A DNA stretch of 44,128 bases from Candidatus Bathyarchaeota archaeon ex4484_205 (GTDB taxonomy: Archaea; Thermoproteota; EX4484-205). Shown in pieces: positions 6,273 to 28,449 of this stretch; the first letter of the stretch is position 1, and each line of letters begins with the position of its first letter. A program made the translations under genes and the position numbers. The notes under the pieces are model-generated. The model saw nothing but the letters and a program-made list of their open reading frames with translations. It did no database searches and was not told the origin of the DNA. The DNA lies in assembly GCA_002255045.1 (NCBI GenBank), contig NJEE01000001.1, forward strand, positions 1 through 44,128, in the 5' to 3' direction.

Positions 6273-6357
6273 GCCCCGGTGGCCTAGCCCGGTAAGGCAG
6301 CAGCCTCGTATGTATAGAGACAGCTGCGGAACGCGGGTTCAAATCCCGCCCGGGGCT
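6273..6357 (+). tRNA. tRNA-Thr(CGU) with one 11-nt intron at the canonical 37/38 site
   Basis: GCCCCGG TG GCCT AGCCCGGTA AGGC A GCAGC CTCGTA[TGTATAGAGAC]A GCTGC GGAAC GCGGG TTCAAAT CCCGC CCGGGGC T. No encoded CCA. Confidence 0.85.
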
Positions 6358-6438
6358 TAAAGGCCCAATATCCTATTGAAAATAGCTAGAAAGGGAGACA
6401 ATTTATATTGGAAACTTTACATTCCAAGATGTGAGAGA

Positions 6439-6822
6439 ATGAGGAAGAAGTTTGTGATAAGAACGGAAAGTATAGGGGAAGTAGAAGTTGAGCTTATTGA
6501 AGAAATAAGCCCTGAAACAGCTCAAAGGATATGGAATGCAATGCCGTTCACCGGAAGGGCAAATCTTTGGGGAGATGAGATTTACTTTAGGATCCCTGTG
6601 GAGATGGACGAGGAGAACGGTAGAGAAGTTGTAGAGTTAGGAGATGTAGCCTATTGGCCACCTGGTAACGCAATGTGCATCTTTTTTGGTAAGACCCCAG
6701 TAAGTGTAGGAAATGAAATAAGGCCAGCCAGCGCAGTGAATATATTTGGAAAGATTTTGGGAGATATCTCATTATTCAAAAAGGTTAGAGAAGGAGAAAT
6801 TATAGAAGTCAGAAGGATGTAG
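6439..6822 (+). CDS. cyclophilin-like TM1367-family protein (DUF369-type)
   Basis: WGDEIYFRIPV...VVELGDVAYWPPGNAMCIFFGKTP...IRPASAVNIFGKI closely matches the TM1367 family as I recall it. I chose the internal M (MRKKF) as the start, because the listed start at 6376 would leave only about 18 nt after the tRNA. Confidence 0.7.
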   Translation: MRKKFVIRTESIGEVEVELIEEISPETAQRIWNAMPFTGRANLWGDEIYFRIPVEMDEENGREVVELGDVAYWPPGNAMCIFFGKTPVSVGNEIRPASAVNIFGKILGDISLFKKVREGEIIEVRRM

Positions 6823-6838
6823 AAGAGGGCGGCTTAAC

Positions 6839-6975
6839 TGGTGCCTCTCGTCCCTAATGAGGGATGGCGAGCCGGAGTTTCAGGCAGAGCCTTTTGAACC
6901 GGCGAACCCCTACGGGAGGAGGTTTCTAAGTAGATCTTGAGCCTCCCGCCTTTGACCTGGCTCGGCCATCGCCGC
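6839..6975 (-). tRNA. tRNA-Leu(CAA), class II, with three inferred introns (37/38, T-loop 59/60, acceptor 70/71); CCA encoded
   Basis: Minus strand: GCGGCGA TG GCC GAGCCAGGTCAAA GGC G GGAGG CTCAAG[ATCTACTTAGAA]A CCTCC TCCCGTAGGGGTTC GCCGG TTCAAA[AGGCTCTGCCTGAAAC]T CCGGC TCGCC[ATCCCTCATTAGGGACGAGAG]GC A CCA. Confidence 0.8.
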
Positions 6976-7044
6976 CCAAATATTTCTTATTTCAAAAATT
7001 GGATTTAAGGATTTATATCAAGGAAGGAGAAAAGATAATGAGGT

Positions 7045-7320
7045 ATGCTTACAGAAATATTTGCAAGTCGTAAACATACAGAACTTCTTGAGTTTCTACT
7101 AGAAAATAGAGATAAGATTTTCACACAGTCGAAACTATCTGAATACTTGAGATGCTCACCTTCAACTATATCTCGGGTGGTGGACAACCTAAAAAGAGAA
7201 GGAATAATTCTGGAGGAGAGATTAGGTACTCAATTGAAAATTATTGCTCTTAATTTGGAGAGGGAAAAAGTGAAAATATTGATAGATTTCTATGAGAGGA
7301 TGAAAAAATGCGAGAAGTAA
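7045..7320 (+). CDS. small winged-HTH transcriptional regulator
   Basis: 91 aa. HTELLEFLLEN...QSKLSEYLRCSPSTISRVVDNLKREGIILEE. Confidence 0.6.
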   Translation: MLTEIFASRKHTELLEFLLENRDKIFTQSKLSEYLRCSPSTISRVVDNLKREGIILEERLGTQLKIIALNLEREKVKILIDFYERMKKCEK

Positions 7321-7967
7321 TGTATGTAATGGAGGATTTTACAGAACCACCAGAAGGGAAAATAGTAATTTTCGGTTTCCCAAGTTGGGGGAATGTAGGA
7401 CCCACGGTATGTGAGCAACTAGTTAAGTTTTCTGCGGCGAGGTATTTAGGTAGCATATATGCATCCCTATTCTCTGATTCGATTTTCACACAGGAAAGTG
7501 GATTCAGCGAGTTACCCTCAATAAAATTTTATCGCACGGAAAGAAGGATAGAAAAAGTGATAGTCGGAATAGGTAATTTTAAGATACTGAGGGAGAACCC
7601 AGAAGCTCATACCCTATGTGAATATCTCATCAAACTTGCAGAAAGATTCAGATGGAAAATGATAATAGGTGTAGAAAGTATAATGTCAGGAGATGGGGAG
7701 CATAGCGTAATTTTAACGAATAAAGAACTAATTAAGATGCTTCCAAAACATGTCACCGTTATGCAGGAAAAAAGTATGAAGAGTCTATTGGGAACCCTTT
7801 TAGGATTGTGTAGAATTAACAGAATAGATGGAATTGGAATATTTGCATCTTCTGAGAAATTACTTGCAAAGGAAAATACCATCATTAGTACTTTTAGGAC
7901 ATTACTTTACATACTTCACTCAGTCCTATCTATGGAGGAAAGTGAAACCAGTCAAAGGAGGGGTTAA
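7308..7967 (+). CDS. PAC2-family protein (proteasome assembly chaperone-like)
   Basis: 219 aa. The N-terminal IVIFGFPSWGNVGPTVCEQLVK resembles the GFPGxGxVG block of archaeal PAC2 proteins. Assignment is tentative. Confidence 0.4.
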   Translation: MREVMYVMEDFTEPPEGKIVIFGFPSWGNVGPTVCEQLVKFSAARYLGSIYASLFSDSIFTQESGFSELPSIKFYRTERRIEKVIVGIGNFKILRENPEAHTLCEYLIKLAERFRWKMIIGVESIMSGDGEHSVILTNKELIKMLPKHVTVMQEKSMKSLLGTLLGLCRINRIDGIGIFASSEKLLAKENTIISTFRTLLYILHSVLSMEESETSQRRG

Positions 7968-9273
7968 AGCCTCTCCATTTCTTTGAGTCGAAGACATATC
8001 TTTTCATAGGTTTAGACAGATGTCTATGAGCACGAGGAGGAGGAAGATATATACCTGGCTCTAAATCTCTTTTAACAGTTACTACGTCAGGAGCATATGA
8101 TATCGCACCACATTTCTTACAGATATAACCTTGATGAAGTCCTCTGGAGGTCATTCTTATACCACAGTTTACACATAAGGGTGGTCTACGAACATACTTT
8201 CTTGTAAGATAGTTAACTTCTAGTTTTTCAAGATTTAGTATATAGGAATTAGAATATCTATCTTGCTGAACCCCTCCATAACAAGAGACTACATCCTCCT
8301 CCTTTAACTTTAAAACCACTTCTCGAAAGCTTCCGGTTGGCTCATATGCAGCACATTTTATTTCCCCACTATGATCCGACAATTCAAAGAATACATGGCC
8401 ACCCTTATATATCTGAGGTTTCTGAGTAATTTTCCCTCTTATAAAAACAGATTGATATAACTGAAGGGAGGAGATCGGGACAGGATGCGTGGGAAGATGT
8501 ACCCCAGTCCCTTGATTGCTTCTGAAAATAACCCAAGAATCGATTGGCTCTTCTACCTTAATAAAATGGAGAGACTTCAAAACTGCGGAGGGAGACTCCC
8601 CTCTAACACCAAATAACACAGGATCTGGGCCGTGTGGAGCTATGAGAACACGTTTAGTTTCAGGATCTACGTTATTAAAGGTTTGAGAGCTGCAAGCCTT
8701 ATCCATCTCAAGTACGGAGAGCGTGTTAATTTTCCGTGGTTTACCCCAATTTTCTCTTTTACGATACGCTATGAGCTCATATGTATGATCTTCAAGTAGA
8801 AGAGAGCCAATTGCCGACACACCACCAACAATGCCACGGATGGAACGATAATAGTGGATGAAAGAACAATACTGTGAAACTTGGCTATAAATATAGCGGG
8901 GATTTAGAGGATATCTTAACGCGGCCATATATATCTCTGCAAATACTTGAGGGATCTCACCTTCAAGCGCTATTAGTATGGGATCCGAATGAGGCAAACC
9001 TTCTTTCACGATAGAGTCGAAAAATTTTGTAATTCTTTTATAAAAAGTTTTCAAATTTTGTATTTTTAGTTCAAATCTCAGGCAAACTGCAGCATTTCCA
9101 CGCGTTTTCCATGGAATATTTGGATTAAGACGAATAAGCAGAGGATAATCTTGAAAAACTACATTATAATTATCTATAAGATACTTGAGAAGTCGCCCTG
9201 CAACATAGGTAGTACAACCTCCTTTATGGGAATCTGTGTCATCTAGGGCAAGATGAAGAAGAATCATTCTCAC
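7930..9273 (-). CDS. tiaS: tRNA(Ile2) 2-agmatinylcytidine synthetase
   Basis: 447 aa. N-terminal LHLALDDTDSHKGGCTTYV, a central OB-like region and a C-terminal zinc ribbon CVNCGIRMTSRG...YICKKCG. Confidence 0.8.
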   Translation of the reverse strand: MRMILLHLALDDTDSHKGGCTTYVAGRLLKYLIDNYNVVFQDYPLLIRLNPNIPWKTRGNAAVCLRFELKIQNLKTFYKRITKFFDSIVKEGLPHSDPILIALEGEIPQVFAEIYMAALRYPLNPRYIYSQVSQYCSFIHYYRSIRGIVGGVSAIGSLLLEDHTYELIAYRKRENWGKPRKINTLSVLEMDKACSSQTFNNVDPETKRVLIAPHGPDPVLFGVRGESPSAVLKSLHFIKVEEPIDSWVIFRSNQGTGVHLPTHPVPISSLQLYQSVFIRGKITQKPQIYKGGHVFFELSDHSGEIKCAAYEPTGSFREVVLKLKEEDVVSCYGGVQQDRYSNSYILNLEKLEVNYLTRKYVRRPPLCVNCGIRMTSRGLHQGYICKKCGAISYAPDVVTVKRDLEPGIYLPPPRAHRHLSKPMKRYVFDSKKWRGFNPSFDWFHFPP

Positions 9274-9285
9274 TCACCTCTTTTT

Positions 9286-9426
9286 TGGTAGCGGGGGGTG
9301 GAATTTCAGGCAAAGCCTTTTGAACCACCGCTTGAGGGATTGAACCTATCTCAGGGTCTCTCCTTCATTATGAGCCCTGCGGGTTATCCGAATTATAGTC
9401 TTTAGACCTGGCTACCCCACCCCGCT
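9286..9426 (-). tRNA. initiator tRNA-Met(CAU) with four inferred insertions (D-loop, 37/38, variable loop, T-loop 59/60); CCA encoded
   Basis: Minus strand: AGCGGGG TG GGGT [29-nt D-loop region] ACCC G CAGGG CTCATA[ATGAAGGAGAG]A CCCTG [22-nt variable region] GGTGG TTCAAA[AGGCTTTGCCTGAAAT]T CCACC CCCCGCT A CCA. The A1:U72 pair and three G:C pairs closing the anticodon stem are archaeal initiator hallmarks. Confidence 0.8.
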
Positions 9427-9538: not shown

Positions 9539-10006
9539 TTGGGAAGTATTAGGATCACGCTAAGAAGGAGGTATGGAGATGTGGAGATAGAGGGGGATAA
9601 TGTAGAAGAAGTGATAGAGTTATTGGAAGGATTTAAAAGAATAGATGAGGAGATCTCAGAAATTTTGAGAGAGCCTCTTAAAGGAGAGCTTGTCGGAATC
9701 GTGGATTATGACAGAAATCAAAAACCGATAATAAAGGTCAGAAAGGAATTTGTAACTGTAAAAGATGCGATTCTACTTCTTCTTTATGCATCAAAGGAGA
9801 GTGGGCTTAGCAACACAGAGATAAACGAACAACTCATCAAGAGTGGAATAAGGACAACAAGTCATGCTGCAAGGTTATCTGAATTGGCAAGGGAAGGGTA
9901 TGTTATGAGGAACGAGAAGGGAAAATATCTAGTTACAGAACAGGGAAAATATCAGGTACAGGAGATAATAAAGAGAATAAGAGGAGGTGAGAATGCTGAA
10001 ACTTGA
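9539..10006 (+). CDS. hypothetical protein with C-terminal winged-HTH (paralog A)
   Basis: 155 aa with a TTG start. C-terminal LSELAREGYVMRNEKGKYLVTEQG. The N-terminal IRITL...GDVEIEGDNVEEVIELL parallels the next ORF. Confidence 0.55.
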   Translation: MGSIRITLRRRYGDVEIEGDNVEEVIELLEGFKRIDEEISEILREPLKGELVGIVDYDRNQKPIIKVRKEFVTVKDAILLLLYASKESGLSNTEINEQLIKSGIRTTSHAARLSELAREGYVMRNEKGKYLVTEQGKYQVQEIIKRIRGGENAET

Positions 10007-10487
10007 GCTAAAGATAGACGGAAAAACCCTAAAGTTAGAGGGAGAAAGAGAGGAGATAGTGGAGGAGGCTCTGAAATTTCTCTATAACATATATCCTAAG
10101 TTATCTCTCATCAATAAGATTGTAGTCAGGCCAGATATAGAAAAATTGATTGAAAGAATATCTGCGTTTGTTAAGATACTTGAGGATGGAACTCTAATAA
10201 TTAAAGGAACTTTCCCAGCTGAAAAGGGCATATTGCTAGCACTAGCTGCGGCAAAGATTGGTGGAGATTGGGGAATCAGAGAGAAATACTTGGGAATCAG
10301 AGAACTGCAAGAATTATTGAATATAAAGAATAAAACTGTGAGAAATAATTGTAGTAAATTATCCAAGGATGGATATATAAGAAGGGATGAGAGAGGAAAA
10401 TATATTATCACAAATAAGGGGATATATTTTCTTCTCGAATCATTGTTCGGGGAGGAGGATGTAGCGGAGGTGAGTGGAGGAGGATAA
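9987..10487 (+). CDS. hypothetical protein with C-terminal winged-HTH (paralog B)
   Basis: 166 aa. LKLELKIDGKTLKLEGEREEIVEEAL and CSKLSKDGYIRRDERGKYIITNKG mirror ORF A. Overlaps ORF A by 20 nt. Confidence 0.55.
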   Translation: MRMLKLELKIDGKTLKLEGEREEIVEEALKFLYNIYPKLSLINKIVVRPDIEKLIERISAFVKILEDGTLIIKGTFPAEKGILLALAAAKIGGDWGIREKYLGIRELQELLNIKNKTVRNNCSKLSKDGYIRRDERGKYIITNKGIYFLLESLFGEEDVAEVSGGG

Positions 10488-10492
10488 GAAGT

Positions 10493-11314
10493 ATGAAAGC
10501 CCGCTACACCCTCATAGATAAATATTTTGAGGAAGTTATAAATTTAACCAGCGAATCTATTGGAAAATCAATATCACCATTCATAGAACCTGAGAGAGAA
10601 GAATTAACATTCGAGTTACAAGAAACTGTAGAAAACAGAATTCTAAAAGGCACAGATGTCAGCATAAAGATAGTAAGCCATGATTCAGAGAGGTTCTTCA
10701 TACTCACAAGGATAGCCACAGTAGAGAAAAATGGAGGATATAAAGTACACCGAAGTAAGCCAAAGTTGTTTATTGTAGATAGGAATGAAATGAGGCCCCT
10801 TAGTTTTGTTGAGTATTTGGCGAGAAAACGGAGTGTTGAAGACACTTACAATGGAATTATCCTATGGGATGGAGGTCTTCTAGATGTATCTAAGAGGGCT
10901 GTTAAGGGTATTTTGTTAGAATCAGAAAGGAGAAAAAACATTATTTTCGCGATCCCTAAGCGTCGTGTATTCTCAGAAATCCTTAGAAACAGATTGGAGA
11001 GCAATAGTGTGAAAGTACTAAGAAATGGGGGATTTTTTGAATTCTATATGAGAACCCATGAGAGAGCTCCTATACTGTATGGGCAGGGATATTCCCCCAA
11101 AGAAGTAGAAGGAGAGGTTAATGATATTTTCTCTGTCTTGAGAAGGGACTGTTTATATCGTGGCTATCCCGAAACGTTGAGACTAGCACATATATACTCT
11201 AAATTTACGAAACTTGAAATCCTGAGTTATCAAATAATTCTAAAAAAGAATTTCTCGGCCAAACCTTGGAAAGACAACTTTAGAAGACAAATATTAGGGG
11301 GCTTGTGGAGCTAA
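10493..11314 (+). CDS. possible NurA-like nuclease (short form)
   Basis: 273 aa. ILWDGGLLD is a candidate for the first acidic motif, and the C-terminal RGYPETLRLAHIYS resembles the GYPxxLxxAH end of NurA domains as I remember them. It sits immediately upstream of, and overlaps, a HerA-like ATPase gene. Confidence 0.4.
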   Translation: MKARYTLIDKYFEEVINLTSESIGKSISPFIEPEREELTFELQETVENRILKGTDVSIKIVSHDSERFFILTRIATVEKNGGYKVHRSKPKLFIVDRNEMRPLSFVEYLARKRSVEDTYNGIILWDGGLLDVSKRAVKGILLESERRKNIIFAIPKRRVFSEILRNRLESNSVKVLRNGGFFEFYMRTHERAPILYGQGYSPKEVEGEVNDIFSVLRRDCLYRGYPETLRLAHIYSKFTKLEILSYQIILKKNFSAKPWKDNFRRQILGGLWS

Positions 11315-12681
11315 TGCAGATATATAGAAAGAATGATCTAATTTTGGAGGTCATTGAATTTTCGCCTGAGATGCGGGAGAGGGGAGATTTTTTGATAATA
11401 GAGGATGTAAGAGGAGATCTCCTTGTTCAGGTAATCGATATGGAATATTTGGAATTACCTGGATTGTTAGAAGAAACCATTACTGACCTACCCTATATAG
11501 AGATAGCGGAAAATGGGGAAGAGAGCATTCTTTTAAAAATAAGAGATGCAACAGTCCTTAAGTGCAAGATAAGGGGGATACTTACCGATAAAGGAATTTT
11601 GACATCGACTTGGATTCCTTCTAGGGTTCACTCCAGCATATCACATATCACAGATGGAGAGGTATTGAGGTATGTAATAGGAGATAGGATAAAGAGGCCA
11701 ATTACTATAGGGAAGACGAGATTTGAAGAGGAAGTCGTCATTGATGCAAAATCTTTAGATGGTAAATTGACTGTAATTACAGGGAAAAAGGGGACAGGAA
11801 AGTCTCATCTTTCAAAGATTATTTTGAAGGGACTTTTAAGCTATGGGGCACCGTGTCTAGTTTTTGATATAAATGGAGAGTATGTAGGAGAGGATACGGT
11901 ATCCCTCACCCCAGGTGATACACTCAAATTCACTTTAAGGTATGTTGGATCGGATTCCTTTCTTAAGATCCTTGACGAAATATATGGATTACCTTCTAGT
12001 TCCTTGTGGGAAGTGCGTAGAGTATGGGAAAGCCTGGGAGAGAAGATCACATTAGAGAAACTAAAACATTCGATCAGAGCCAAGAGCATGAATGAGCATG
12101 TGAGGGATGCTATTTTGAGAAGGTTGGAGATGATAGAGGCTTCAAGAATATTTACGGATGAACCTAGCGAGGGGATTAGAATAGAGGAGAAAATACACAG
12201 CGACAGAGGAGTGATAGTAAATCTAAAGGGATTGCCTGGCGTCTTCAGGAGAATGATCGTTGACCTTATTCTTACGAAGATTATTTATTTACTTGAAAAG
12301 GAAAGAATTCCTCCTATATTTTTATTTGCTGAGGAGGCACATACTTACCATGATGAGAAGTTTTGGGAGGACCTTGTCACACGAATGAGACATATTGGAA
12401 TCTCCTTGATTTTTATCACAAATCAGCCGGATAGACTTTCTGAGACGATTTATAGACAGGCAGATAACGTTTTTCTTTTTAATTTCACGAATGAAAATGA
12501 CTTGAGTTTTGTGTCCAAAGCTTCTCGAGTAGACTCGGAAACCGTCCGTTCCTTAGTTTCAACTCTTCCACCGAGGTATTGTCTCATATTAGGAGAAGTT
12601 GTCGGAGACATACCTATAGTTCTTAGCGTTGTTGGAGATACCTATTTTAAATCTGGAAGAACAAAATGTTATTTCGACTAG
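11305..12681 (+). CDS. HerA/FtsK-superfamily ATPase (DUF87, HerA-like)
   Basis: 458 aa. N-terminal HAS-barrel-like GDFLIIEDVRGDLLVQVIDME, Walker A ITGKKGTGKSHL and Walker B IFLFAEEAH. Confidence 0.7.
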   Translation: MELMQIYRKNDLILEVIEFSPEMRERGDFLIIEDVRGDLLVQVIDMEYLELPGLLEETITDLPYIEIAENGEESILLKIRDATVLKCKIRGILTDKGILTSTWIPSRVHSSISHITDGEVLRYVIGDRIKRPITIGKTRFEEEVVIDAKSLDGKLTVITGKKGTGKSHLSKIILKGLLSYGAPCLVFDINGEYVGEDTVSLTPGDTLKFTLRYVGSDSFLKILDEIYGLPSSSLWEVRRVWESLGEKITLEKLKHSIRAKSMNEHVRDAILRRLEMIEASRIFTDEPSEGIRIEEKIHSDRGVIVNLKGLPGVFRRMIVDLILTKIIYLLEKERIPPIFLFAEEAHTYHDEKFWEDLVTRMRHIGISLIFITNQPDRLSETIYRQADNVFLFNFTNENDLSFVSKASRVDSETVRSLVSTLPPRYCLILGEVVGDIPIVLSVVGDTYFKSGRTKCYFD

Positions 12682-17304: not shown

Positions 17305-17399
17305 TGGGCCGGGCCGGACTTGAACCGGCGACCTCCCGGTTATCAGCCGGGTGCTCTAACCTTCAGCGTGACAATCTCACTATGCTAAGCTACCGGCCC
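17305..17399 (-). tRNA. tRNA-Ile(GAU) with one ~20-nt D-loop insertion
   Basis: Minus strand: GGGCCGG TA GCTT AGC[ATAGTGAGATTGTCACGCTGAA]GGTTA GAGC A CCCGG CTGATAA CCGGG AGGTC GCCGG TTCAAGT CCGGC CCGGCCC A. Confidence 0.8.
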
Positions 17400-19530: not shown

Positions 19531-19711
19531 GGGGCCGTCGTCTAAACGAAAGGGATAGCCAGGTAGGACGGCGGGCTCCAGCCACTATTGAAGGGTTCGC
19601 TGACTAAGTGGATGAAGAATGGTTGGAGCTCGGGAGGAACCCGTAGGTGTAAAAGCCGGGGAAATGTGAGCGTTCAAAGGGCTTTGCCTGGAAGTCGCTC
19701 CGGCCCCACCA
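19531..19711 (+). tRNA. tRNA-Trp(CCA) with four inferred insertions, including a 57-nt 37/38 intron; CCA encoded
   Basis: GGGGCCG TC GTCT [22-nt D-loop region] GGAC G GCGGG CTCCAG[57 nt, 19582-19638]A CCCGT [23-nt variable region] GAGCG TTCAAA[GGGCTTTGCCTGGAAG]T CGCTC CGGCCCC A CCA. Confidence 0.8.
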
Positions 19712-20434: not shown

Positions 20435-20908
20435 ACCTTTACGGACCTTTACGGCAACACCTCTCTTGAAAAATCTTGCTTCCCGAGGTGATAAGAGAAG
20501 CTTGCCTACAGCGAGTAGAGAATCATTTTCATCCACTACTATGACCTCATCTCCGGAACGTAGAAGCATATCTACTTCGAGCACATACTTTGCAAAGACA
20601 TTCCTCCCTTTTCGTATATACTTACTTACAGAAGAAGGAACAATAACTCTATGACGGGGTTTACTAAATGTTTGTCTCAAGAGTTCACCACCCGCTATAC
20701 TAAGAGAGAAAAGACCTGTAGAGGGCACTAGGGTAGCTATCAATCTTTCGGTCTCAGTATAGAGCCGACGTATCTTACCATTCTTCCCTCTTTCCACACT
20801 TCCTAGAGATTTCAAAACCTTGGAGCCGAACCCGAAACCAAATTGATAATCCAGGAGGTCCTTAATATAGAGTTTTTCTAATATAGTGATACTTGAACAA
20901 TTAGCCAA
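20411..20908 (-). CDS. PUA-domain RNA-binding protein
   Basis: 165 aa. The C-terminal VFAKYVLEVDMLLRSGDEVIVVDENDSLLAVGKLLLS...GVAVKVRKG is a typical PUA fold pattern. Confidence 0.6.
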   Translation of the reverse strand: MANCSSITILEKLYIKDLLDYQFGFGFGSKVLKSLGSVERGKNGKIRRLYTETERLIATLVPSTGLFSLSIAGGELLRQTFSKPRHRVIVPSSVSKYIRKGRNVFAKYVLEVDMLLRSGDEVIVVDENDSLLAVGKLLLSPREARFFKRGVAVKVRKGLDRSSFK

Positions 20909-20949: not shown

Positions 20950-21432
20950 ATGAACTGTGAAATATGTGGATCACCAATATATGGAAAAGCTAAAAAAGTG
21001 TTGATAGATGGCGTACCAATGCTGGTATGTCAGGCATGTGCAAATCTTTCTTCAACGGAGATAGTTGAGAAGAAAACTACAGAAGGGAGAAGAGTATACC
21101 AAAGAAGAAGACTCATTAAAAAGGTAGGGGAGAAGAAGACTTTCTGGAACGATGATCTGACGTTAATAGATAACTATGGAGAAAGAATAAGGATGGCGAG
21201 AGAAGAAATGGGAATGACCTTAGAAGAGTTAAGCCGTAAATCAGGGTTAAAAGTGAGCTATCTTAGAAATATAGAAAACCAGAGGATGAAACCCACCTTG
21301 GGAGAGAGCCGAATTTTGGAGCATATACTTGATATCGCAATACTCACAAAAACGCCGGAGTATGGAGATAAACAAAGAACGAAAGTTCGAAGAGATGGAT
21401 TAACATTAAGTGATATATTGAGAATGAAGTGA
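20950..21432 (+). CDS. archaeal MBF1-type transcription factor (zinc ribbon + Cro/C1 HTH)
   Basis: 160 aa. CEICGSPIYG...LVCQAC is followed by IRMAREEMGMTLEELSRKSGLKVSYLRNIE. Confidence 0.8.
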   Translation: MNCEICGSPIYGKAKKVLIDGVPMLVCQACANLSSTEIVEKKTTEGRRVYQRRRLIKKVGEKKTFWNDDLTLIDNYGERIRMAREEMGMTLEELSRKSGLKVSYLRNIENQRMKPTLGESRILEHILDIAILTKTPEYGDKQRTKVRRDGLTLSDILRMK

Positions 21433-22025
21433 AGAAAATAATAGATCAGATGACTGAGATATACGTACTTCGAATGGGGCATAGGTACATACGTGATCTG
21501 AGAATCTCCACACATTGTGGATTGGTTGCCTGGGCACTAGGAGCTAAGGGAATACTCTTCACGGGTATGTATGATAAAGAAATGATGAAGAAATTGAGAG
21601 AAACTGTAGAGAGGTGGGGTGGAGAATTTGAGATAGGATATGTTGAGAATTGGAGGGAATATATTCTTGAAGAAAGAAGAAGAGGAACATATATTATCCA
21701 TCTAACCATGTATGGAATAAATATACCAACCGTAGAGAAGGCTCTCCAGAAAATTCTGAGATGGAAGAGAATATTAGTAATTATAGGGGCTGAGAAGATG
21801 CCTCGGGAAGTATATTTACTGGCACACCTCAATGTAGCTATAAAGAATGTGCCACACTCAGAGGTTGCAGCATTATCCATCTTTATGGATAGAATTACAA
21901 ATGGGAAGGCGCTTCTAGAATATCCAGAACATATGAAGATAAAAATAATCCCACAAATCAGGGGAAAAGTTATAGAGAGAGGAGAACCCAAATATATAGA
22001 GGGAGACATCAATAGGGAAGTTTGA
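21429..22025 (+). CDS. tRNA (cytidine56-2'-O)-methyltransferase
   Basis: 198 aa. YVLRMGHRYIRDLRISTHCGLVAWALGAKG matches the aTrm56 N-terminal block. SPOUT-type C-terminal region. Confidence 0.7.
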   Translation: MKKIIDQMTEIYVLRMGHRYIRDLRISTHCGLVAWALGAKGILFTGMYDKEMMKKLRETVERWGGEFEIGYVENWREYILEERRRGTYIIHLTMYGINIPTVEKALQKILRWKRILVIIGAEKMPREVYLLAHLNVAIKNVPHSEVAALSIFMDRITNGKALLEYPEHMKIKIIPQIRGKVIERGEPKYIEGDINREV

Positions 22026-22588: not shown

Positions 22589-22689
22589 GCCGAGGTACCC
22601 TAGCCATACAACACTAGAAAGGTAGGGGGCAAGCCTGCTAAGCTTGTGCCCGTAAGGGCTCGCGGGTTCAAATCCCGCCCTCGGCGCCA
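22589..22689 (+). tRNA. tRNA-Ser(GCU), class II, with one ~13-nt D-loop insertion; CCA encoded
   Basis: GCCGAGG TA CCC TAGCC[ATACAACACTAGA]AAGGTA GGG.. CAAGC CTGCTAA GCTTG TGCCCGTAAGGGCTC GCGGG TTCAAAT CCCGC CCTCGGC G CCA. Confidence 0.8.
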
Positions 22690-22690: not shown

Positions 22691-22765
22691 GGGCGCGTCG
22701 TCCAGCCCGGTTAGGACGCCGCTCTTACGAAGCGGTGGTCGCCGGTTCGAATCCGGCCGCGCCCA
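22691..22765 (+). tRNA. tRNA-Val(UAC), intron-free
   Basis: GGGCGCG TC GTCC AGCCCGGTTA GGAC G CCGCT CTTACGA AGCGG TGGTC GCCGG TTCGAAT CCGGC CGCGCCC A. Starts 1 nt after the CCA of tRNA-Ser. Confidence 0.9.
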
Positions 22766-22808: not shown

Positions 22809-22899
22809 GGGCCGGTAGAACAGATGGTAGGTTCGCTGGCTTCGCAATCTTTTTCGAGAAAGCCAGAGGTCGGGGGTTCAAGTCCCCCCCGGTCCACCA
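22809..22899 (+). tRNA. tRNA-Ala(CGC) with a 14-nt anticodon-loop intron; CCA encoded
   Basis: GGGCCGG TA GAAC AGATGGTAG GTTC G CTGGC TTCGCA[14 nt]A GCCAG AGGTC GGGGG TTCAAGT CCCCC CCGGTCC A CCA. The G3:U70 alanine identity pair is present. Confidence 0.85.
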
Positions 22900-23963
22900 A
22901 TATTAAAACGTAATATAGCAGCTATTCCACCAAATCCTTTCAATATTTTTCCAGGTTCTTCTTTGGAGTTGATTATAATAATTTCTCCTCCATTTTCCTC
23001 CACCATTTGAAAAATATTTTCGACCTCTCTGCGTTCTTCATCGCCTATATTTGCCAGAAAATCATCTGTGATCAATAATTTTTGAACCGCTCTCATCTCT
23101 ATCGCGTACTTTACATTGTCATATCCATAAGTAGCCAGATGATTCTTTGCGATCTTTATAAGAAAATCTTGTATAATGACATTTTCTTCAATGATTCTTA
23201 ATTTCTTCTGTACATTTCTCAACACTCCACTTCGTAACGTCTCCTTAATGCCAGATATTGTGCCAGAGGTAGCAAAGCCCAGATAGATTACTCTCTTCCA
23301 AAGATCTGGATATTTAGATTGAAGATATGTAGCTAATTTATTTTTAATAAATCCAGGACCTACTATTACAATGTAATATTCTCGAGTGGGCTCAATTTGC
23401 TTCATAGCCTTTACGATTGAGGAGAGAAAGAATAGCAGTTGCTCACTATTTTCAGAGGCATATCTCTTTGAGGATATCTCTGAATGAATTCTTTGAATGT
23501 GGGAAAAACCGGATGTCTCAATTAAAGCTAATGTGGCCTCTTCGCGGTCCATGGCAATTACAATTAGAGGTACAGAGGGATGTCTTGAGGCATATAGTTG
23601 TTTCAGTTGGTAGTTGAGCCACTGTCTTTTCCTAATTAAATATTTGTTTCCTGGTTGTATTACGAGAGAATGTCTATGACCCTTTGTTCCCTCAAGATCC
23701 TCAGGGCATTCCATAACTATTCCATCTAACTTTAACATGTTGCTTTCCAAGTCAAGGAATTTTGAGAGTACCTTGAGAGTGAGCCAGACTTTAACCTTTG
23801 TTTTCCCCACCCGATTTCCTCCAACCGTTTTAATAACTCTGTGAGAAAACCCTGAGACAAGGTCGTCTTTCTCTATAACTTGATAAAGAGTCCAGAGGTC
23901 TTCCTTAAATCGAGGTACTAACTTAATAATTCCTCTTTTCTCATCATAGCTAAGAATTTTCAA
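22878..23963 (-). CDS. pelA: Pelota (Dom34 homolog, ribosome rescue / no-go decay factor)
   Basis: 361 aa. MKILSYDEKRGIIKLVPRFKEDLWTLYQVI at the N-terminus, and an eRF1-like C-terminal domain ending KGFGGIAAILRF. The last ~22 nt overlap tRNA-Ala on the opposite strand. Confidence 0.85.
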   Translation of the reverse strand: MKILSYDEKRGIIKLVPRFKEDLWTLYQVIEKDDLVSGFSHRVIKTVGGNRVGKTKVKVWLTLKVLSKFLDLESNMLKLDGIVMECPEDLEGTKGHRHSLVIQPGNKYLIRKRQWLNYQLKQLYASRHPSVPLIVIAMDREEATLALIETSGFSHIQRIHSEISSKRYASENSEQLLFFLSSIVKAMKQIEPTREYYIVIVGPGFIKNKLATYLQSKYPDLWKRVIYLGFATSGTISGIKETLRSGVLRNVQKKLRIIEENVIIQDFLIKIAKNHLATYGYDNVKYAIEMRAVQKLLITDDFLANIGDEERREVENIFQMVEENGGEIIIINSKEEPGKILKGFGGIAAILRFNIGGPGGT

Positions 23964-24044: not shown

Positions 24045-24172
24045 GGGGGCGTGGGCTAGAGAAATCGGCCAATCTGGTCTATGCTTCGTGGCTTGGGCCC
24101 TCCTATTAGGTGAGAACCCACGAGGTCCCAGGTTCAAAAGGCGATAGCCTGAGAATCCTGGCGCCCCCACCA
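24045..24172 (+). tRNA. tRNA-Pro(UGG) with three inferred introns (D-loop, 37/38, T-loop 59/60); CCA encoded
   Basis: GGGGGCG TG GGCT AG[AGAAATCGGCCAAT]CTGGTCTA TGCT T CGTGG CTTGGG[CCCTCCTATTAGGTGAGAA]C CCACG AGGTC CCAGG TTCAAA[AGGCGATAGCCTGAGAA]T CCTGG CGCCCCC A CCA. Confidence 0.8.
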
Positions 24173-24210: not shown

Positions 24211-24314
24211 GCCTCGGTAGCTCAGCTCGGTAGAGCGGCAGCCTTGTAAATTAATGCAGAAGCTGTTGGTCGTGGGTTCAAACATCAAAGGAACAAATCC
24301 CACCCGAGGCTCCA
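24211..24314 (+). tRNA. tRNA-Thr(UGU) with two inferred introns (37/38 and T-loop 59/60); CCA encoded
   Basis: GCCTCGG TA GCTC AGCTCGGTA GAGC G GCAGC CTTGTA[12 nt]A GCTGT TGGTC GTGGG TTCAAA[CATCAAAGGAACAAA]T CCCAC CCGAGGC T CCA. Confidence 0.8.
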
Positions 24315-24342: not shown

Positions 24343-24499
24343 TGCCGGAGGCGGGATTTGAACCCGCGACTTCTGGACAGGTAGTTTTCCAGATTTCTCA
24401 TGCCCCCGATTATGAGTGACGCTACAACTTGTTCTGGCGCTCTAGTCTAAGGGGGCTATCTAACCAGGTTGCTCTCTGGTTGATCTGAGCTACTCCGGC
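24343..24499 (-). tRNA. elongator-type tRNA(CAU) (Met, or Ile2 before agmatidine formation) with five inferred 16-18-nt insertions
   Basis: Minus strand: GCCGGAG TA GCTC AG[ATCAACCAGAGAGCAA]CCTGGTTA[GATAGCCCCCTTAGACTA]GAGC G CCAGA[ACAAGTTGTAGCGTCA]CTCATAA[TCGGGGGCATGAGAAA]TCTGG[AAAACTACCTGTCCAG]AAGTC GCGGG TTCAAAT CCCGC CTCCGGC A. Confidence 0.75.
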
Positions 24500-24541: not shown

Positions 24542-25156
24542 TTATCGACTCTCTAAACCTTTTAACTCTTCAGGTAGTTCAGGAAGCATTTCCTTCGTTT
24601 TCTGGGCAGCAAGTTCAGCAGCTTCCTTCAAGATCTTTTCCGCCTCCCTAGAAGAAGTGGACGTATCTACGGACACAGGAGAAACCGCACCAGCCTCAAT
24701 TACAAGCTGGTCTAACATATCATTAACTTTCTGGAGATCATAAGCCACTTCGGGTAGAACGCCCTTAAGGGAACCCTCAAGTGATCTTATAATATTAACT
24801 GTAGGACCGAGAACATTTACGACATCTCTAAATTCCTGTGCTATTTCCAGTCTCAGAATAGTCCTCTTCAGAGCTAGTTGACTTTGGAGAATGACTTGTG
24901 ATACTCTTTTGAGTTGAACAACCTCATTCGCATACACGGTAGCTCTTGGTTTATCGCCATCTTTTAAAGCCTCTACACAAGCTTGAAAAAGGTCTTTGCT
25001 ACGTTGGATAAGTTGTCGATATTTATTTTCTAGCTTAGATTCTTGAAGTTTCAGAAGTGTAAGAGCTTCTAAAACTCTTTCTCTTGAGGAGGAAGGGTAT
25101 TCATTCTTTACTACAATTTCCTTTTCTTTCTTCTTTCTGAAGAAGGGTAGTCTCAC
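24542..25156 (-). CDS. cdvB: ESCRT-III (Snf7/CdvB-family) protein
   Basis: 204 aa, predicted helical hairpin core. The proline-containing acidic tail MLPELPEELKGLE is MIM2-like. Divergent from Vps4. Confidence 0.65.
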   Translation of the reverse strand: MRLPFFRKKKEKEIVVKNEYPSSSRERVLEALTLLKLQESKLENKYRQLIQRSKDLFQACVEALKDGDKPRATVYANEVVQLKRVSQVILQSQLALKRTILRLEIAQEFRDVVNVLGPTVNIIRSLEGSLKGVLPEVAYDLQKVNDMLDQLVIEAGAVSPVSVDTSTSSREAEKILKEAAELAAQKTKEMLPELPEELKGLESR

Positions 25157-25245
25157 CTACTTACACCTATTCTACGTGGTATGCCACACTACATAAAATT
25201 TTCCTCAAGTGAAATTAGGGAAATAAACATTAAAAATAATGGAGA

Positions 25246-26340
25246 TTGATAGGGATATGGACAGAGGAGTTGGAATTGATAGAACAGCTTGAAAAGGCAG
25301 CGAAAGATGCAGCTCAAGAGGCAGTATCAAAAGACAGAAATGGAGACAGGGAGGGAGCGATAGAGAAATATCGAGAGGCGATAAAATATCTAAGAAAGCT
25401 ATATTTCTATAGTGAAGATGAGTATAGGAGAAGAGTTTACTTAGAGAAAATTACGGAATATACCTCAAGAATAAAAACATTGAAGGAAGGATTAAAACCA
25501 GTCACTATAGAAAGAAAACCCTCTATCACATGGAATGATATAATAGGATTAGAAGATGTGAAGAGAGTAATTAGAGAAAGTATAGTATATCCTTATAGAA
25601 GACCGGATTTATATCCACTTGGCTGGCCTCGAGGAATATTACTTTTCGGGCCACCAGGATGTGGAAAAACCTTAGTTGCAACCGCAGTGGCTAATGAAAT
25701 AGATGCAGAATTCTATTCAGTGGATGCTGCCACACTACTTTCTAAATGGTTAGGAGAATCAGAGAAGAATATTAAAGAATTATTTACACGGGCACGTGAA
25801 ACAAGTCTGAAAGGGAAACCAGTCATAATCTTCATAGATGAGGTAGATGCACTAACCTCCAAGAGAGAAATGGAGGTGGGTGGTGAGGTTCGTGCGAGAA
25901 CACAACTCCTCAAAGAAATGGATGGATTAGAAAACAAGGGCAGAAAATTCTATCTGTATGTCCTTGCAGCAACCAACAAACCTTGGGAGCTTGATGAACC
26001 TTTCATAAGGAGGTTCCAAAAAAGAATATACGTGAAGCTACCGGGACTGCAGGAACGAATAAAACTATTTAAGTATTACTGTAGAAGATTGAAAGTATCA
26101 CCAGAGGTAGATTTTGAGAAACTTGCGATGGAAACAGAATATTATTCTGCAGAGGACATATATTTACTATGCGTAGATGTACAGAATAAGTTAGCAAAGG
26201 AAGTGCTGGAATTAAATTTACCTCAGCGAGAGGCAACTTTTCAGGACTTCTTAGAGGCATTGAATAACAGAAAAACTAGTATAATATTAGAGAATCTGAG
26301 ACGCTACGAAGAATGGGCAAATAGGTATAAAGCAATTTAA
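25246..26340 (+). CDS. cdvC: Vps4/CdvC AAA+ ATPase with N-terminal MIT domain
   Basis: 364 aa with a TTG start. MIT-like GAIEKYREAIKYLRKLY, Walker A GPPGCGKT, Walker B VIIFIDEVD and ATNKPWELDEPFIRRF. Confidence 0.85.
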   Translation: MIGIWTEELELIEQLEKAAKDAAQEAVSKDRNGDREGAIEKYREAIKYLRKLYFYSEDEYRRRVYLEKITEYTSRIKTLKEGLKPVTIERKPSITWNDIIGLEDVKRVIRESIVYPYRRPDLYPLGWPRGILLFGPPGCGKTLVATAVANEIDAEFYSVDAATLLSKWLGESEKNIKELFTRARETSLKGKPVIIFIDEVDALTSKREMEVGGEVRARTQLLKEMDGLENKGRKFYLYVLAATNKPWELDEPFIRRFQKRIYVKLPGLQERIKLFKYYCRRLKVSPEVDFEKLAMETEYYSAEDIYLLCVDVQNKLAKEVLELNLPQREATFQDFLEALNNRKTSIILENLRRYEEWANRYKAI

Positions 26341-27053
26341 ATAGCAGATCCTTCTGATCCTCTTTCTGAAACTATTTTCACTTTGCCTTCTTTCTCCAAT
26401 AGCTTTAGGATATCCATTAACTTTTCTTGTGGAATGTTCAAATCCTTTGAACACTGCTCAAGGGAGAAGGAGGACTTCTTCTCTTTAATATACCGGTATA
26501 CCTCCATTTCTATAGAGGGAGGGACCTCAGGAAAATCTTCTTTTATCTTTTCGGAGGCCAGGCGAGAGGCACTTTCAAGAATCCTTTTCGCCTCATTGCT
26601 CGCCTCAATGGAGGATGAAGGAACAGGGATAGATTCAGAGGGTATTAAGACTGAGAGATCTTCTAACATCTTATTAACTTCCAGATTTATGTAAGTCAAA
26701 TTTGTTGGAAAATTCTCTCTCACATCTTGTATAATATCTTTTAGAGGTACCAATATGGGGGGGATTGAACCCACAATCTCTATGGTTTCAAGCCTTACTC
26801 TCAGCGCTTCAAGCAGAATTAGGCTTTTTTGAATTAATTCTGCCAATCTCCGTACTTGAACAATTTCTTCAGCATACATTATACTCTCTTCCCTATTACC
26901 TCTTAATTCAGCATCCACACACATAGAAAAGAGCTGTTCTCTTTTATTTTTCAAGTTACGATACACACGATTCAATTTCTCAATTTGTATAGAAATATTT
27001 ATGAGAGCTCTACTAATCAGGCGACGTTCATCATGTTCGTCAATCAACACCAT
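26337..27053 (-). CDS. cdvB: ESCRT-III (CdvB-family) protein with C-terminal winged-helix domain
   Basis: 238 aa. Snf7-like helical core followed by VYRYIKEKKSSFSLEQCSKDLNIPQEKLMDILKLLEKEGKVKIV. Confidence 0.65.
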   Translation of the reverse strand: MVLIDEHDERRLISRALINISIQIEKLNRVYRNLKNKREQLFSMCVDAELRGNREESIMYAEEIVQVRRLAELIQKSLILLEALRVRLETIEIVGSIPPILVPLKDIIQDVRENFPTNLTYINLEVNKMLEDLSVLIPSESIPVPSSSIEASNEAKRILESASRLASEKIKEDFPEVPPSIEMEVYRYIKEKKSSFSLEQCSKDLNIPQEKLMDILKLLEKEGKVKIVSERGSEGSAI

Positions 27054-27108
27054 CCACTAAGGCCTCCAACAGATTTCTTTTCCCGATGATATATCTCTTA
27101 CTATACAT

Positions 27109-27828
27109 TCATATATTTTTGGTAGATTTTTCCAGAACAAGCACTTTCCTGTCGGTACCTACATATACCTTATCAGCTAGGTTAATGAAAAGACCGGTTT
27201 CCACCACACCAGGAATCAACTTTATTTGGATATCTACATCTTTTGGGGAAGATATCTTATTTAGTTTTACATCAAGCAAATAATTGCCATTGTCAGTAAT
27301 CACAGGGCCTAATCTTTTTTTTGACATGCGTAGGGAAGGAGATACTTTGTACATCTTCTTTATGGTCAGAACTACTGAGGAATATGCAAAAGGTAGGATT
27401 TCTATAGGGAGACTATGATGTTCACCGAGATATTGAACAAGCTTTTTGGAGTCAATTATTATATATTTTCTGCTAGAGGCGTATGCGAGGATTTTCTCTC
27501 GAGCTAATGCCCCTCCACCACCCTTTAACATGTTAAGATTCCTGTCTACTTCATCTGCACTATCTATATAGATATCTGGAGAGGGGAACTCGTCTAGTGT
27601 TGCCAAGGAGAAACCATACTTTATAACTGAGTAGTAAGTATGCGAAGAGGAAGGAATTACTCTCAATCTTTCGAACATATTCCTTCTTTTCATATATTTT
27701 GCGAACAGAGGGATAAATTGAGTAATTGTACTTCCCGAGCCTAATGCTACTGTTGATATATCTTCCAGATCATTTAGTAGTACTTCAGCAGCTTTCTGTC
27801 TAGCTTTCTGAATATTCATCCCTATCAC
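27109..27828 (-). CDS. rpiA: ribose-5-phosphate isomerase A
   Basis: 239 aa. ALGSGSTI, IDSADEVD and KGGGGALAREKI. Confidence 0.85.
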   Translation of the reverse strand: MIGMNIQKARQKAAEVLLNDLEDISTVALGSGSTITQFIPLFAKYMKRRNMFERLRVIPSSSHTYYSVIKYGFSLATLDEFPSPDIYIDSADEVDRNLNMLKGGGGALAREKILAYASSRKYIIIDSKKLVQYLGEHHSLPIEILPFAYSSVVLTIKKMYKVSPSLRMSKKRLGPVITDNGNYLLDVKLNKISSPKDVDIQIKLIPGVVETGLFINLADKVYVGTDRKVLVLEKSTKNI

Positions 27829-28297
27829 GTTCCATCAGAAGGTCTTCCAGCTCTCGTCTAATAGCCTCAAGCTCCTCAAAATCTGTATTTTCCATATTAT
27901 CCAAATTTTTCAATAAATCAGGAGGCAAGCTATGAGAGGAGAACTCCACATTGATTCCCAGCTCCTGCGAAAGTTTACGAATAGAAGTGTCAATCAATCC
28001 TATTATGTTGAGAAGAGAGTTAAAAAGAGTACTCCGCAGTTCTACGATTCTATGAAGCTTCAAGATTTTCTCCTTCTCATTCAATATATTTTCTAAATTT
28101 TTGGATTCTTCCAAATAGGATGAAATTATATTTTCAAATTCTTTGCGGGAGATCTCTCCATTTTTTAACTTTGTCTCATATTTATTAACAATATCTTTTA
28201 TAACTGAGATACGTAACTTCATAATCCGTATGTCTTCCTTCAATGCCTCTAAATCTATCGAACTTAAATATTTTGAATTGTCAACCAATTTTGACAA
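27800..28297 (-). CDS. coiled-coil protein with acidic MIM1-like C-terminus (possible ESCRT-associated factor)
   Basis: 165 aa, all-helical heptad-like sequence. The tail is DFEELEAIRRELEDLLMERD. Its end overlaps the rpiA start by 29 nt, and it is co-oriented with the wH-CdvB gene. Confidence 0.4.
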   Translation of the reverse strand: MSKLVDNSKYLSSIDLEALKEDIRIMKLRISVIKDIVNKYETKLKNGEISRKEFENIISSYLEESKNLENILNEKEKILKLHRIVELRSTLFNSLLNIIGLIDTSIRKLSQELGINVEFSSHSLPPDLLKNLDNMENTDFEELEAIRRELEDLLMERDRDEYSES

Positions 28298-28349
28298 CTA
28301 TTACAATATAACATTTCTGCCTCAATTTTAAGGTTTCACTAATTGAGCA

Positions 28350-28449
28350 AGCCCCGGGCGGGGTTTGAACCCGCGACCTCCGCCTCTTCAGAGAATACCA
28401 AGGCGTTGCTCCACCAGGTTCCTCGCATTATGCTCTGAGCTACCGGGGC
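28350..28449 (-). tRNA. tRNA-Thr(GGU) with two inferred introns (D-loop 16 nt, anticodon loop 10 nt)
   Basis: Minus strand: GCCCCGG TA GCTC AG[AGCATAATGCGAGGAA]CCTGGTG GAGC A ACGCC TTGGTA[TTCTCTGAAG]A GGCGG AGGTC GCGGG TTCAAAC CCCGC CCGGGGC T. The 27:43 pair is an A/G mismatch. Confidence 0.75.

Follow-up and report, generated by a model that had tools for sequence, protein, structure and literature searches.

The stretch of DNA analysed here, the window, comprises 44,128 nucleotides (nt) of contig NJEE01000001.1 from assembly GCA_002255045.1 (Candidatus Bathyarchaeota archaeon ex4484_205), and between positions 6273 and 28449 it carries 13 transfer RNA (tRNA) loci, 12 of which are interrupted by up to five mostly very short inserts per gene. 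We read this span as 13 functional tRNA genes, 12 of them broken up by altogether 27 archaeal introns that would be removed by proteins, the cutting enzyme presumably being of the EndA type, and assign to this reading a probability of about 0.9. The locus total is 13, and coordinates and intron counts are listed for 12 genes, i.e. for tRNA-Val and 11 interrupted ones (Table 1). That the insertions are introns had been proposed in a preliminary description made from the sequence, and this view is supported: their removal restores cloverleafs, the junctions carry bulge-helix-bulge (BHB) motifs far above chance and related genomes vary at the same sites.

The genes were detected with a purpose-written dynamic-programming threader that fits a Sprinzl-type cloverleaf (stems, U8, A14, G18G19, U33, R37, G53-C61 and UUCRA), accepts introns 8-80 nt long between any pair of positions of the mature RNA and lowers the penalty for an intron the better its BHB motif. 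The motif is scored in a register in which a 4-bp helix involves four exon bases, the last of them two positions ahead of the 5' splice site, and is accompanied by 3-nt bulges, a geometry that agrees with the published description (PMC4090602). Threading without BHB information found the right genes but left intron positions ambiguous in weakly constrained loops, the anticodon of initiator tRNA-Met (iMet) being cut out, and the junction-dependent penalty was therefore added. When the whole window was scanned on both strands in 230-nt tiles, the 13 loci stood out with scores of 62-97, while the best of about 860 other tiles reached 45 (median 22). Dinucleotide shuffles of the gene regions likewise scored 45 at most, corresponding to z = 7.6-13.3 for the real genes, and the antisense strands of the tRNA genes scored 35-43. 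Once Leu and Ser are granted type II variable arms, the intron total comes to 27, and every per-gene count of the preliminary description, which had been obtained by folding by hand, is reproduced by this automated, intron-aware scan. Introns of 10-21 nt make up 26 of the 27, the exception being a 57-nt intron in tRNA-Trp. The products spliced in silico are canonical cloverleafs with the conserved tRNA bases (threader scores of 62-90 versus no more than 45 for the controls), and ARAGORN calls all 12 spliced sequences with the expected anticodon.

Standard finders under-call these genes, as had been anticipated. On the raw window, ARAGORN reports two of the 13 tRNAs, namely tRNA-Val and a gene at 17304-17399 that is mistyped as Phe; run on the unspliced genes with anticodon-loop introns allowed, it makes five calls, two of them wrong. 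The Rfam tRNA model recovers six of the 13 loci at its gathering score, one only in part, and a relaxed threshold reveals no further tRNA in the window. Raw tRNA-Leu(CAA) is missed by both programs. The gene for tRNA-Val, called by ARAGORN, Rfam and the threader, is uninterrupted and had already been singled out as the sole gene of this sort. Overall G+C content of the window is 39%, with G+C-rich islands in the intergenic gaps, and the remaining islands, on visual inspection, looked like tRNA pieces split by short inserts.

The insertion sites recur from gene to gene. Eight introns in seven genes lie in the D-arm, eight genes are interrupted at 37/38, besides tRNA-Thr(UGU) with its intron in the register 38/39, five genes carry an intron at 58/59 or 59/60 and three in the variable region; Met-CAU 30/31 and Leu 70/71 are singletons. 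The tallies of recurring sites in the preliminary description (D-loop in seven genes, 37/38 in eight, 59/60 in five, variable loop in three) are thus returned by the threader as well. A full 4-bp central helix is formed at 20 of the 27 junctions and at least three of its four pairs at 26; by comparison, a 4/4 helix arises at 2% of random sites with the same lengths and in 17% of the introns that the same program picks from background DNA. Similarly, 37% of the real junctions but 2% of such background introns attain a BHB score of 12 or more. Six to seven of the 27 junctions conform to the strict hBHBh' motif, with outer, central and inner helices, and the rest are relaxed (hBH, HBh' or bulge-helix-loop). 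Model examples of hBHBh' are the T-loop introns found in Leu, iMet, Trp and Pro, in which U54-R57 pairs with UGAA of the intron, the T-stem serves as outer helix and a GGC/GCC hairpin as inner helix. Mini-introns of 10-14 nt at 37/38 combine the anticodon stem with a central helix that encloses nothing but a loop, whereas introns in the D-arm and the variable region mostly possess central and inner helices and lack an outer one.

The first base of the intron is A in 22 of 27 cases (p ~1e-7) and the penultimate base is A in 24 (p ~6e-10). These A-rich bulges provide independent support since the signal was not part of the scoring, and they may reflect a sequence preference of the host endonuclease. 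Many of the introns end in AA or AG.

Comparison with related genomes points in the same direction. Identity of the next-closest pelota proteins amounts to no more than 34-38%; their contigs retain the local gene order together with the same tRNAs. We compared the Ser, Pro and Trp genes with their counterparts in the related loci L002, L005, L006 and L007, which were placed by their neighbours (pelota for Ser and Pro, aRF1 plus an amino-acid kinase gene for Trp). The D-loop intron of tRNA-Ser(GCU) occupies one shared site and measures 14 nt in the window, 17 nt in L002 and 27 nt in L005; L002 and L005 have an additional intron at 59/60 that the window lacks, and one at 29/30 occurs in L005 alone. 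In L006 and L007, tRNA-Pro(UGG) is interrupted at the three sites used in the window, by longer and unrelated introns (in L006 16 nt at 15/16, 27 nt at 37/38 and 28 nt at 59/60), and in addition at 40/41, while its anticodon and T stems show compensatory changes. The tRNA-Trp(CCA) gene of L002 sits in the same gene neighbourhood and contains four introns, three at the sites found in the window and one at 28/29 instead of 43/44; at 59/60 it carries AGGCCUUGCCUGAGAU. For Ser, Pro and Trp the exons are thus kept while the introns differ in length and sequence, and some of them occur in only part of the genomes compared. Conserved exons combined with variable, movable inserts are expected of introns, but neither of pseudogenes nor of fitting artefacts. 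The multi-intron genes of the relatives (Table 1) encode tRNA-Glu, Trp, Ser and Pro and contain two to four introns each. The gene pairs common to the window and its relatives record intron gain, loss and sliding. Judged by the gene models, the multi-intron trait is common to a wider clade. Here, too, standard tools fall short: the three multi-intron tRNAs on the 21-kb locus L002 are reported neither by ARAGORN nor by Rfam at gathering score (none of three), and ARAGORN reports no tRNA in L002, L003 or L004. The pelota loci of Bathyarchaeia, Odinarchaeia and Hecatellales have no tRNA within 3 kb and hence offer no contrast.

The same species is represented by the NCBI metagenome-assembled genome (MAG) GCA_003661625.1 ('archaeon') and by six metagenome contigs from the Joint Genome Institute (JGI), all with 99.3-99.9% identity. 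Across these seven contigs not a single exon difference occurs; the iMet gene, for example, is identical in JGI contig L148. The only single-nucleotide polymorphism in any tRNA gene, A-to-G at 6879, affects base 14 of the T-loop intron of Leu and turns the central-helix pair U54-A into U-G, by which pairing is kept.

Among other explanations, we consider it unlikely, yet the most serious alternative, that some of the inserts are expansions retained in the mature RNA or artefacts of over-flexible fitting, which would bring the true count well below 27. Candidates are above all the inserts in or beside the variable region, namely iMet 47/48, Trp 43/44 and Met-CAU 45/46, together with the least convincing cases in the anticodon loop. 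A model with five free deletions certainly has many degrees of freedom, the type I mode of the threader misread the variable arms of Leu and Ser as spurious extra introns (type II mode was used instead, in which the true long arms are recognised as such), and motif scores are poor at Thr-UGU 38/39 and at the D-loop junction of Trp. Against this, shuffled and antisense controls stay at or below 45, the real genes scoring 62-97. Moreover, the three inserts in the variable region, those of iMet, Trp and Met-CAU, carry BHB motifs with central helices of 4/4, 3/4 and 4/4 pairs and A-rich bulges, so that they do not have the appearance of a retained long variable arm, and the Trp 43/44 insert is missing from the gene in L002 although the exons are conserved. 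In archaea, long variable arms, which form a stem-loop between positions 45 and 48, are known from tRNA-Leu and tRNA-Ser only. Less probable still is a scenario in which the interrupted genes are pseudogenes in decay, or chimeras produced by assembly, while intact copies elsewhere do the work. Our view is confined to the window and sequences derived from MAGs can be chimeric, but each spliced product is a perfect cloverleaf with U8, A14, G18G19, U33 and GUUCRA, identity elements such as G3:U70 in Ala, A1:U72 in iMet and A73 in Leu are kept, and seven independent contigs agree in every exon. Because the exons are unchanged across these contigs and relatives with about 37% pelota identity share the exon/intron layout, including compensatory changes, purifying selection is indicated. 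Removal of the inserts by another lineage-specific nuclease that reads the A-rich bulges or the intron sequence, in place of EndA and RtcB, would fit the unusual A-richness and the many junctions without a full BHB, but is just as improbable given that a 4-bp helix with 3-nt bulges in exactly the published register is the signature of EndA, that (alpha-beta)2 and epsilon2 enzymes are known to accept relaxed hBH and HBh' forms (PMC4090602, PMC5829648) and that EndA is reported to be essential in Archaea (PMC3488258).

Several points weigh against our interpretation of 27 protein-spliced introns. The threader and its scores are our own and unbenchmarked, and the 13 genes, all from the window, are a sample of about 46. 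Many intron boundaries can slide by 1-3 nt with the mature RNA unchanged. At Thr-UGU 38/39 the motif is the weakest of all (6 of 14), with a mature RNA identical to that from a 37/38 cut, and the D-loop junction of Trp allows two near-equal readings, 19546-19558 or, as the alternative given by the threader, 19546-19560. Evidence for the splicing itself is confined to the DNA sequence, and Pfam scans detected no EndA or RtcB gene within the window.

The way in which the splice sites form can be read from the sequence. In the precursor, four 3'-proximal bases of the intron pair with an exon quartet located two positions upstream of the 5' splice site. This quartet is the 5' strand of the D-stem for introns at 15/16, positions 32-35 at 37/38 and U54-R57 at 59/60. 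The resulting 4-bp central helix is flanked by two A-rich 3-nt bulges that hold the splice sites. By analogy with all studied archaea, we infer that EndA would cut both bulges and an RtcB-type ligase would join the exons. Splicing is probably ordered in at least Met-CAU, because the intron at 37/38 acquires its 5-bp outer helix only after that at 30/31 has left. According to published work, (alpha-beta)2 and epsilon2 EndA are the only forms that cut non-canonical relaxed motifs (PMC5829648, PMC4090602). Since one of the two flanking helices, outer or inner, is missing at many of our junctions, it is reasonable to suppose, as in the preliminary description, that the host may have a relaxed-specificity EndA of the (alpha-beta)2 or epsilon2 kind. 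The 27 natural junctions, which range from strict to minimal BHB and share the A-rich signature, constitute material for defining what a broad-specificity EndA needs.

The T-loop intron is not peculiar to the window. A pattern scan of public metagenomes for it (L087-L206), run with a pattern that was too permissive, yielded at least 120 matches, and 31 good tRNAs are among the matches listed. No fewer than 24 distinct archaeal tRNAs, unrelated in other respects and with one to four introns each, carry the type UUCAAA|RGGC-N3-4-GCCUGRRA; further tRNA genes of the species studied here were not among the matches listed. The 59/60 intron thus represents either one family of wide distribution or a solution that has arisen repeatedly.

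Introns of this kind are known from the Thermoproteales, where Pyrobaculum calidifontis and tRNA-Pro of P. islandicum likewise feature short introns with BHB or relaxed BHB motifs, several per gene and at canonical as well as non-canonical sites (PMC4090602, PMC8450103). As in the window, these sites include D-arm, anticodon stem, variable region, T-loop and acceptor stem, similar introns interrupt different tRNAs and standard finders miss them. In the tRNAscan-SE 2.0 paper, archaeal tRNA genes are said to contain three introns at most, and the authors cite P. calidifontis as record holder with 71 introns in 46 genes or 1.5 per gene (PMC8450103). The window differs by 27 introns in 13 genes (2.1 per gene), by genes with four and five introns and by a host that has PolD. 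Asgard archaea provide a second precedent. In Atabeyarchaeia and Freyarchaeia, 92-95% of the tRNA genes are interrupted, three genomes contain 228 introns, more than half of the genes have multiple, mostly non-canonical introns, with up to four per gene (supplementary table), and tRNAscan-SE missed many of them (PMC11291895). Heavy loads outside the Thermoproteales and four-intron genes have thus already been documented by this 2024 study. The Asgard set stems from a different phylum (Asgard versus TACK-like; TACK, Thaumarchaeota, Aigarchaeota, Crenarchaeota and Korarchaeota) and from mesophilic soil, no five-intron gene is listed, and, by our own reading of the coordinates in that table, many of its genes span more DNA at a similar intron count. 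Candidatus Caldiarchaeum subterraneum (Aigarchaeota) and Thaumarchaeota resemble the host of the window as TACK archaea with PolD and introns in D-, V- and T-arms, and their EndA is reported to be of the (alpha-beta)2 form (PMC3293823, PMC4090602), but with 13 of 45 tRNA genes interrupted and three carrying multiple introns (PMC3293823) the load in Caldiarchaeum is much lighter.

The load of the window ranks among the heaviest seen so far in tRNA genes. The intron kind itself is therefore known; new are its occurrence in an unrelated lineage, the local density of 2.1 introns per gene and the five-intron gene. We found neither a report of a five-intron tRNA gene nor any on this organism in the literature, so that five introns in a 75-nt RNA are the highest per-gene number found and set a new upper bound. 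Extreme fragmentation of tRNA genes extends past the Thermoproteales and some Asgard archaea into a deep TACK lineage and its hot-spring relatives. For such MAGs, ordinary finders, which recovered two to six of 13 genes here and none of three in a relative, would render tRNA counts, completeness estimates and inferences on codon usage badly wrong. More speculatively, and with considerable doubt about the combination as a whole, this lineage and its hot-spring relatives might hold the densest tRNA intron load of any organism, with more than two introns per gene genome-wide and the first five-intron tRNA gene. Such a load would have arisen as a small number of mini-intron families spread, the 59/60 'RGGC-loop-GCCUGRAA' type among them, and would be processed by an endonuclease that, as a trait of the lineage, prefers A-rich bulges and minimal bulge-helix-loop substrates.

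Three of the individual gene models depart in detail from the preliminary description. For tRNA-Leu(CAA) the count of three introns stands, and the 3' intron has been moved into the acceptor stem: the gene ends in ...UCGCC[21-nt intron]GC-A-CCA, and excision yields UCGCCGC-A73-CCA. An acceptor stem built from the 7-bp pairing GGGCGGC/GCCGCCC was rejected; it leaves four bases before the D-arm and loses both A73-CCA and the perfect BHB. The two heptamers form a leader/trailer duplex (7 bp, dG -16.4 kcal/mol; window 6826-6841 and 6976-6985, - strand) in which GGGCGGC consists of the last two leader bases and the first five tRNA bases while GCCGCCC begins 6 nt past CCA. A duplex of this strength is seen only at Leu, the other genes reaching -6 at best; a role in processing is conceivable, as is an origin as a relic left by intron insertion. 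In tRNA-Trp four introns are retained, but the one in the D-loop is best read as 13 nt (19546-19558), a reading favoured by comparison with L002 and with which ARAGORN still accepts the spliced product. The three introns of tRNA-Pro are unaltered and its anticodon is now settled as UGG. The hallmarks of an initiator, A1:U72 and GGG/CCC in the anticodon stem, are present in iMet, and the product of the five-intron Met-CAU gene is a perfect 75-nt cloverleaf called Met(cat) by ARAGORN.

Table 1. Interrupted tRNA genes and their introns, multi-intron tRNA genes of related loci (coordinates of the respective locus) and further genes of the window. Central helix in pairs formed out of four; outer and inner helices in bp.
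Feature	Position	Strand	Site and length	Remarks
tRNA-Thr(CGU), 1 intron	6273..6357	+		Rfam 56.6 bits; threader 89; ARAGORN Thr(cgt) after splicing
Thr-CGU intron	6311..6321	+	37/38, 11 nt	central 3/4, outer 5, inner none (bulge-helix-loop)
tRNA-Leu(CAA), 3 introns	6842..6975	-		threader (type II) 77; ARAGORN Leu(caa) after splicing; CCA encoded at 6839-6841
Leu intron	6924..6935	-	37/38, 12 nt	central 3/4, outer 6
Leu intron	6877..6892	-	59/60, 16 nt	AGGCUCUGCCUGAAAC; strict hBHBh': central 4/4, outer 5 (T-stem), inner 3
Leu intron	6845..6865	-	70/71 (acceptor stem), 21 nt	central 4/4, inner 5 (UCCCU/AGGGA)
Initiator tRNA-Met(CAU), 4 introns	9289..9426	-		CCA encoded; threader 71; ARAGORN Met(cat) after splicing
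iMet intron	9384..9401	-	22/23 (D-loop/D-stem border), 18 nt	slides up to 3 nt 5'; central 4/4, inner 2
iMet intron	9358..9368	-	37/38, 11 nt	central 3/4, outer 5
iMet intron	9331..9347	-	47/48 (variable loop), 17 nt	central 4/4, outer 2, inner 2
iMet intron	9303..9318	-	59/60, 16 nt	AGGCUUUGCCUGAAAU; strict hBHBh': central 4/4, outer 5, inner 3
tRNA-Ile(GAU), 1 intron	17305..17399	-		threader 90; ARAGORN Ile(gat) after splicing, Phe on raw DNA
Ile intron	17362..17381	-	17a/18 (D-loop), 20 nt	central 4/4, inner 4
tRNA-Trp(CCA), 4 introns	19531..19708	+		CCA encoded; threader 68; ARAGORN Trp(cca) after splicing
Trp intron	19546..19558	+	15/16 (D-loop), 13 nt	central 4/4; A-rich bulge; D-loop AACCAGGUA as in L002
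Trp intron	19582..19638	+	37/38, 57 nt	central 4/4, outer 5; sole long intron
Trp intron	19645..19663	+	43/44, 19 nt	central 3/4, inner 3
Trp intron	19679..19694	+	59/60, 16 nt	GGGCUUUGCCUGGAAG; central 4/4, outer 5, inner 3
tRNA-Ser(GCU), 1 intron	22589..22686	+		CCA encoded; abuts tRNA-Val; threader (type II) 89; ARAGORN Ser(gct) after splicing
Ser intron	22606..22619	+	17/17a (D-loop), 14 nt	central 4/4, outer 4
tRNA-Val(UAC), uninterrupted	22691..22765	+		called by ARAGORN; Rfam 66 bits; threader 97
tRNA-Ala(CGC), 1 intron	22809..22896	+		G3:U70; CCA encoded; Rfam 52.7 bits; threader 84; ARAGORN Ala(cgc)
Ala intron	22847..22860	+	37/38, 14 nt	central 4/4, outer 5, inner none
tRNA-Pro(UGG), 3 introns	24045..24169	+		CCA encoded; threader 74; ARAGORN Pro(tgg)
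Pro intron	24060..24072	+	15/16, 13 nt	central 4/4
Pro intron	24098..24116	+	37/38, 19 nt	central 4/4, outer 6, inner 3
Pro intron	24139..24155	+	59/60, 17 nt	central 4/4, outer 5, inner 3
tRNA-Thr(UGU), 2 introns	24211..24311	+		CCA encoded; Rfam 49.2 bits; threader 76; ARAGORN Thr(tgt)
Thr-UGU intron	24250..24261	+	38/39 (anticodon loop), 12 nt	central 4/4 with two G-U pairs; no in-register flanking helices
Thr-UGU intron	24282..24296	+	58/59 (T-loop; slides to 59/60), 15 nt	central 4/4, outer 2
Elongator-type tRNA-Met(CAU), 5 introns	24343..24499	-		threader 62; shuffle z = 10.1
Met-CAU intron	24469..24484	-	15/16, 16 nt	central 4/4, inner 2
Met-CAU intron	24442..24459	-	22/23, 18 nt	central 4/4, inner 3
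Met-CAU intron	24418..24433	-	30/31, 16 nt	central 3/4, outer 3, inner 3
Met-CAU intron	24395..24410	-	37/38, 16 nt	central 4/4; outer 1, becoming 5 after removal of the 30/31 intron
Met-CAU intron	24371..24386	-	45/46, 16 nt	central 4/4, inner 2
tRNA-Thr(GGU), 2 introns	28350..28449	-		Rfam 44.4 bits; threader 71; ARAGORN Thr(ggt)
Thr-GGU intron	28419..28434	-	15/16, 16 nt	central 3/4, inner 3
Thr-GGU intron	28386..28395	-	37/38, 10 nt	central 4/4, outer 4
Multi-intron tRNA gene, L002	1706-1810	-
Multi-intron tRNA gene, L002	6684-6857	+		tRNA-Trp
Multi-intron tRNA gene, L002	11211-11321	+
Multi-intron tRNA gene, L005	11364-11503
Multi-intron tRNA gene, L006	5570-5755	-
Multi-intron tRNA gene, L007	2007-2173	-
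TiaS	7930-9273
aRF1	17444-18736
PUA/TGT_C2 protein	20411-20908
aTrm56	21429-22025
pelota	22878-23963
GatC/GatA	28517-30262
PolD small subunit DP1	36216-37688	+		Pfam DNA_pol_E_B plus Metallophos
PolD large subunit DP2	37691-41044	-		PF03833

In Euryarchaeota, the intron of tRNA-Trp nests a box C/D guide RNA, a type marked by boxes C, D', C' and D and by guide spacers of about 12 nt that are complementary to the tRNA. The 37/38 intron of tRNA-Trp in the window and its 55-nt counterpart in L002 share a GGGUU-N2-CUGAC-N-UAAG-N-GGAUGA core, within which CUGA-N6-GGAUGA is conserved and looks like the K-loop formed by boxes D' and C'. The likeness to the euryarchaeal case thus consists in the longest intron bearing CUGA and GAUGA boxes; here, in contrast, there is just an internal D'/C'-like pair and the guide spacing does not fit. 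A search of the intron for terminal C and D boxes revealed none, and Rfam gives no match for it. At 57 nt, it compares with a published median intron length of 65 nt (PMC4090602).

The presence of a signal recognition particle RNA (Rfam, 16884-17198) marks the window as archaeal. Thermoproteales possess the crenarchaeal replication set, which is not known to include PolD. As the window encodes both subunits of this polymerase, DP1 and DP2, the host does not belong to the Thermoproteales, in agreement with the preliminary description. Nor was close protein similarity to this order found: the best non-self matches come from MAGs of Thermoproteota, Brockarchaeota, Bathyarchaeia and Nitrososphaerota with just 37-49% identity, and the nearest non-self homologues of DP2 belong to a 'Thermoproteota archaeon' (48% identity), followed by Brockarchaeota (46%) and Bathyarchaeia (45%). 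A first scan of representative genome contigs with the pelota protein gave no match, so that the species apparently lies outside those representatives. Within the GTDB species representatives, the pelota locus that matches best bears a four-intron Pro gene and goes by the label 'uncultured Nitrososphaerota archaeon'. The annotated start codon of pelota differs from that of the open reading frame in the window. Taken together, these similarities place the host, as far as they reach, in a deep TACK/Thermoproteota lineage. Two features suggest a thermophile: the tRNAs have a high G+C content while the genome is A+T-rich, and the relatives come from hot springs, as we infer from JGI and NCBI sample identifiers. 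A putative ESCRT-type cell-division locus at 24542-27053, made up of a weakly Snf7-like protein, Vps4 (MIT plus AAA) and a second coiled-coil protein without Pfam match, is consistent with a TACK or Asgard host.

The 13 tRNA genes are packed into 22 kb (6273-28449) and interleaved with tRNA- and translation-related genes (Table 1). Between the genes for Ser and Val there are just 4 nt, including the CCA encoded by the Ser gene, and co-transcription of the two is therefore suggested. At 2341-5254, a corrinoid (B12-binding) protein adjoins a reductive activator of the RACo type, a pair that hints at corrinoid-dependent methyl transfer; a methyltransferase or Mcr gene was not seen in the window. 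The operon at 9539-12681 combines a weakly NurA-like nuclease and a HerA/DUF87 ATPase with two small proteins, of which the first matches winged-helix domains weakly and below threshold and the second lacks any Pfam match, and could represent a repair or defence module.

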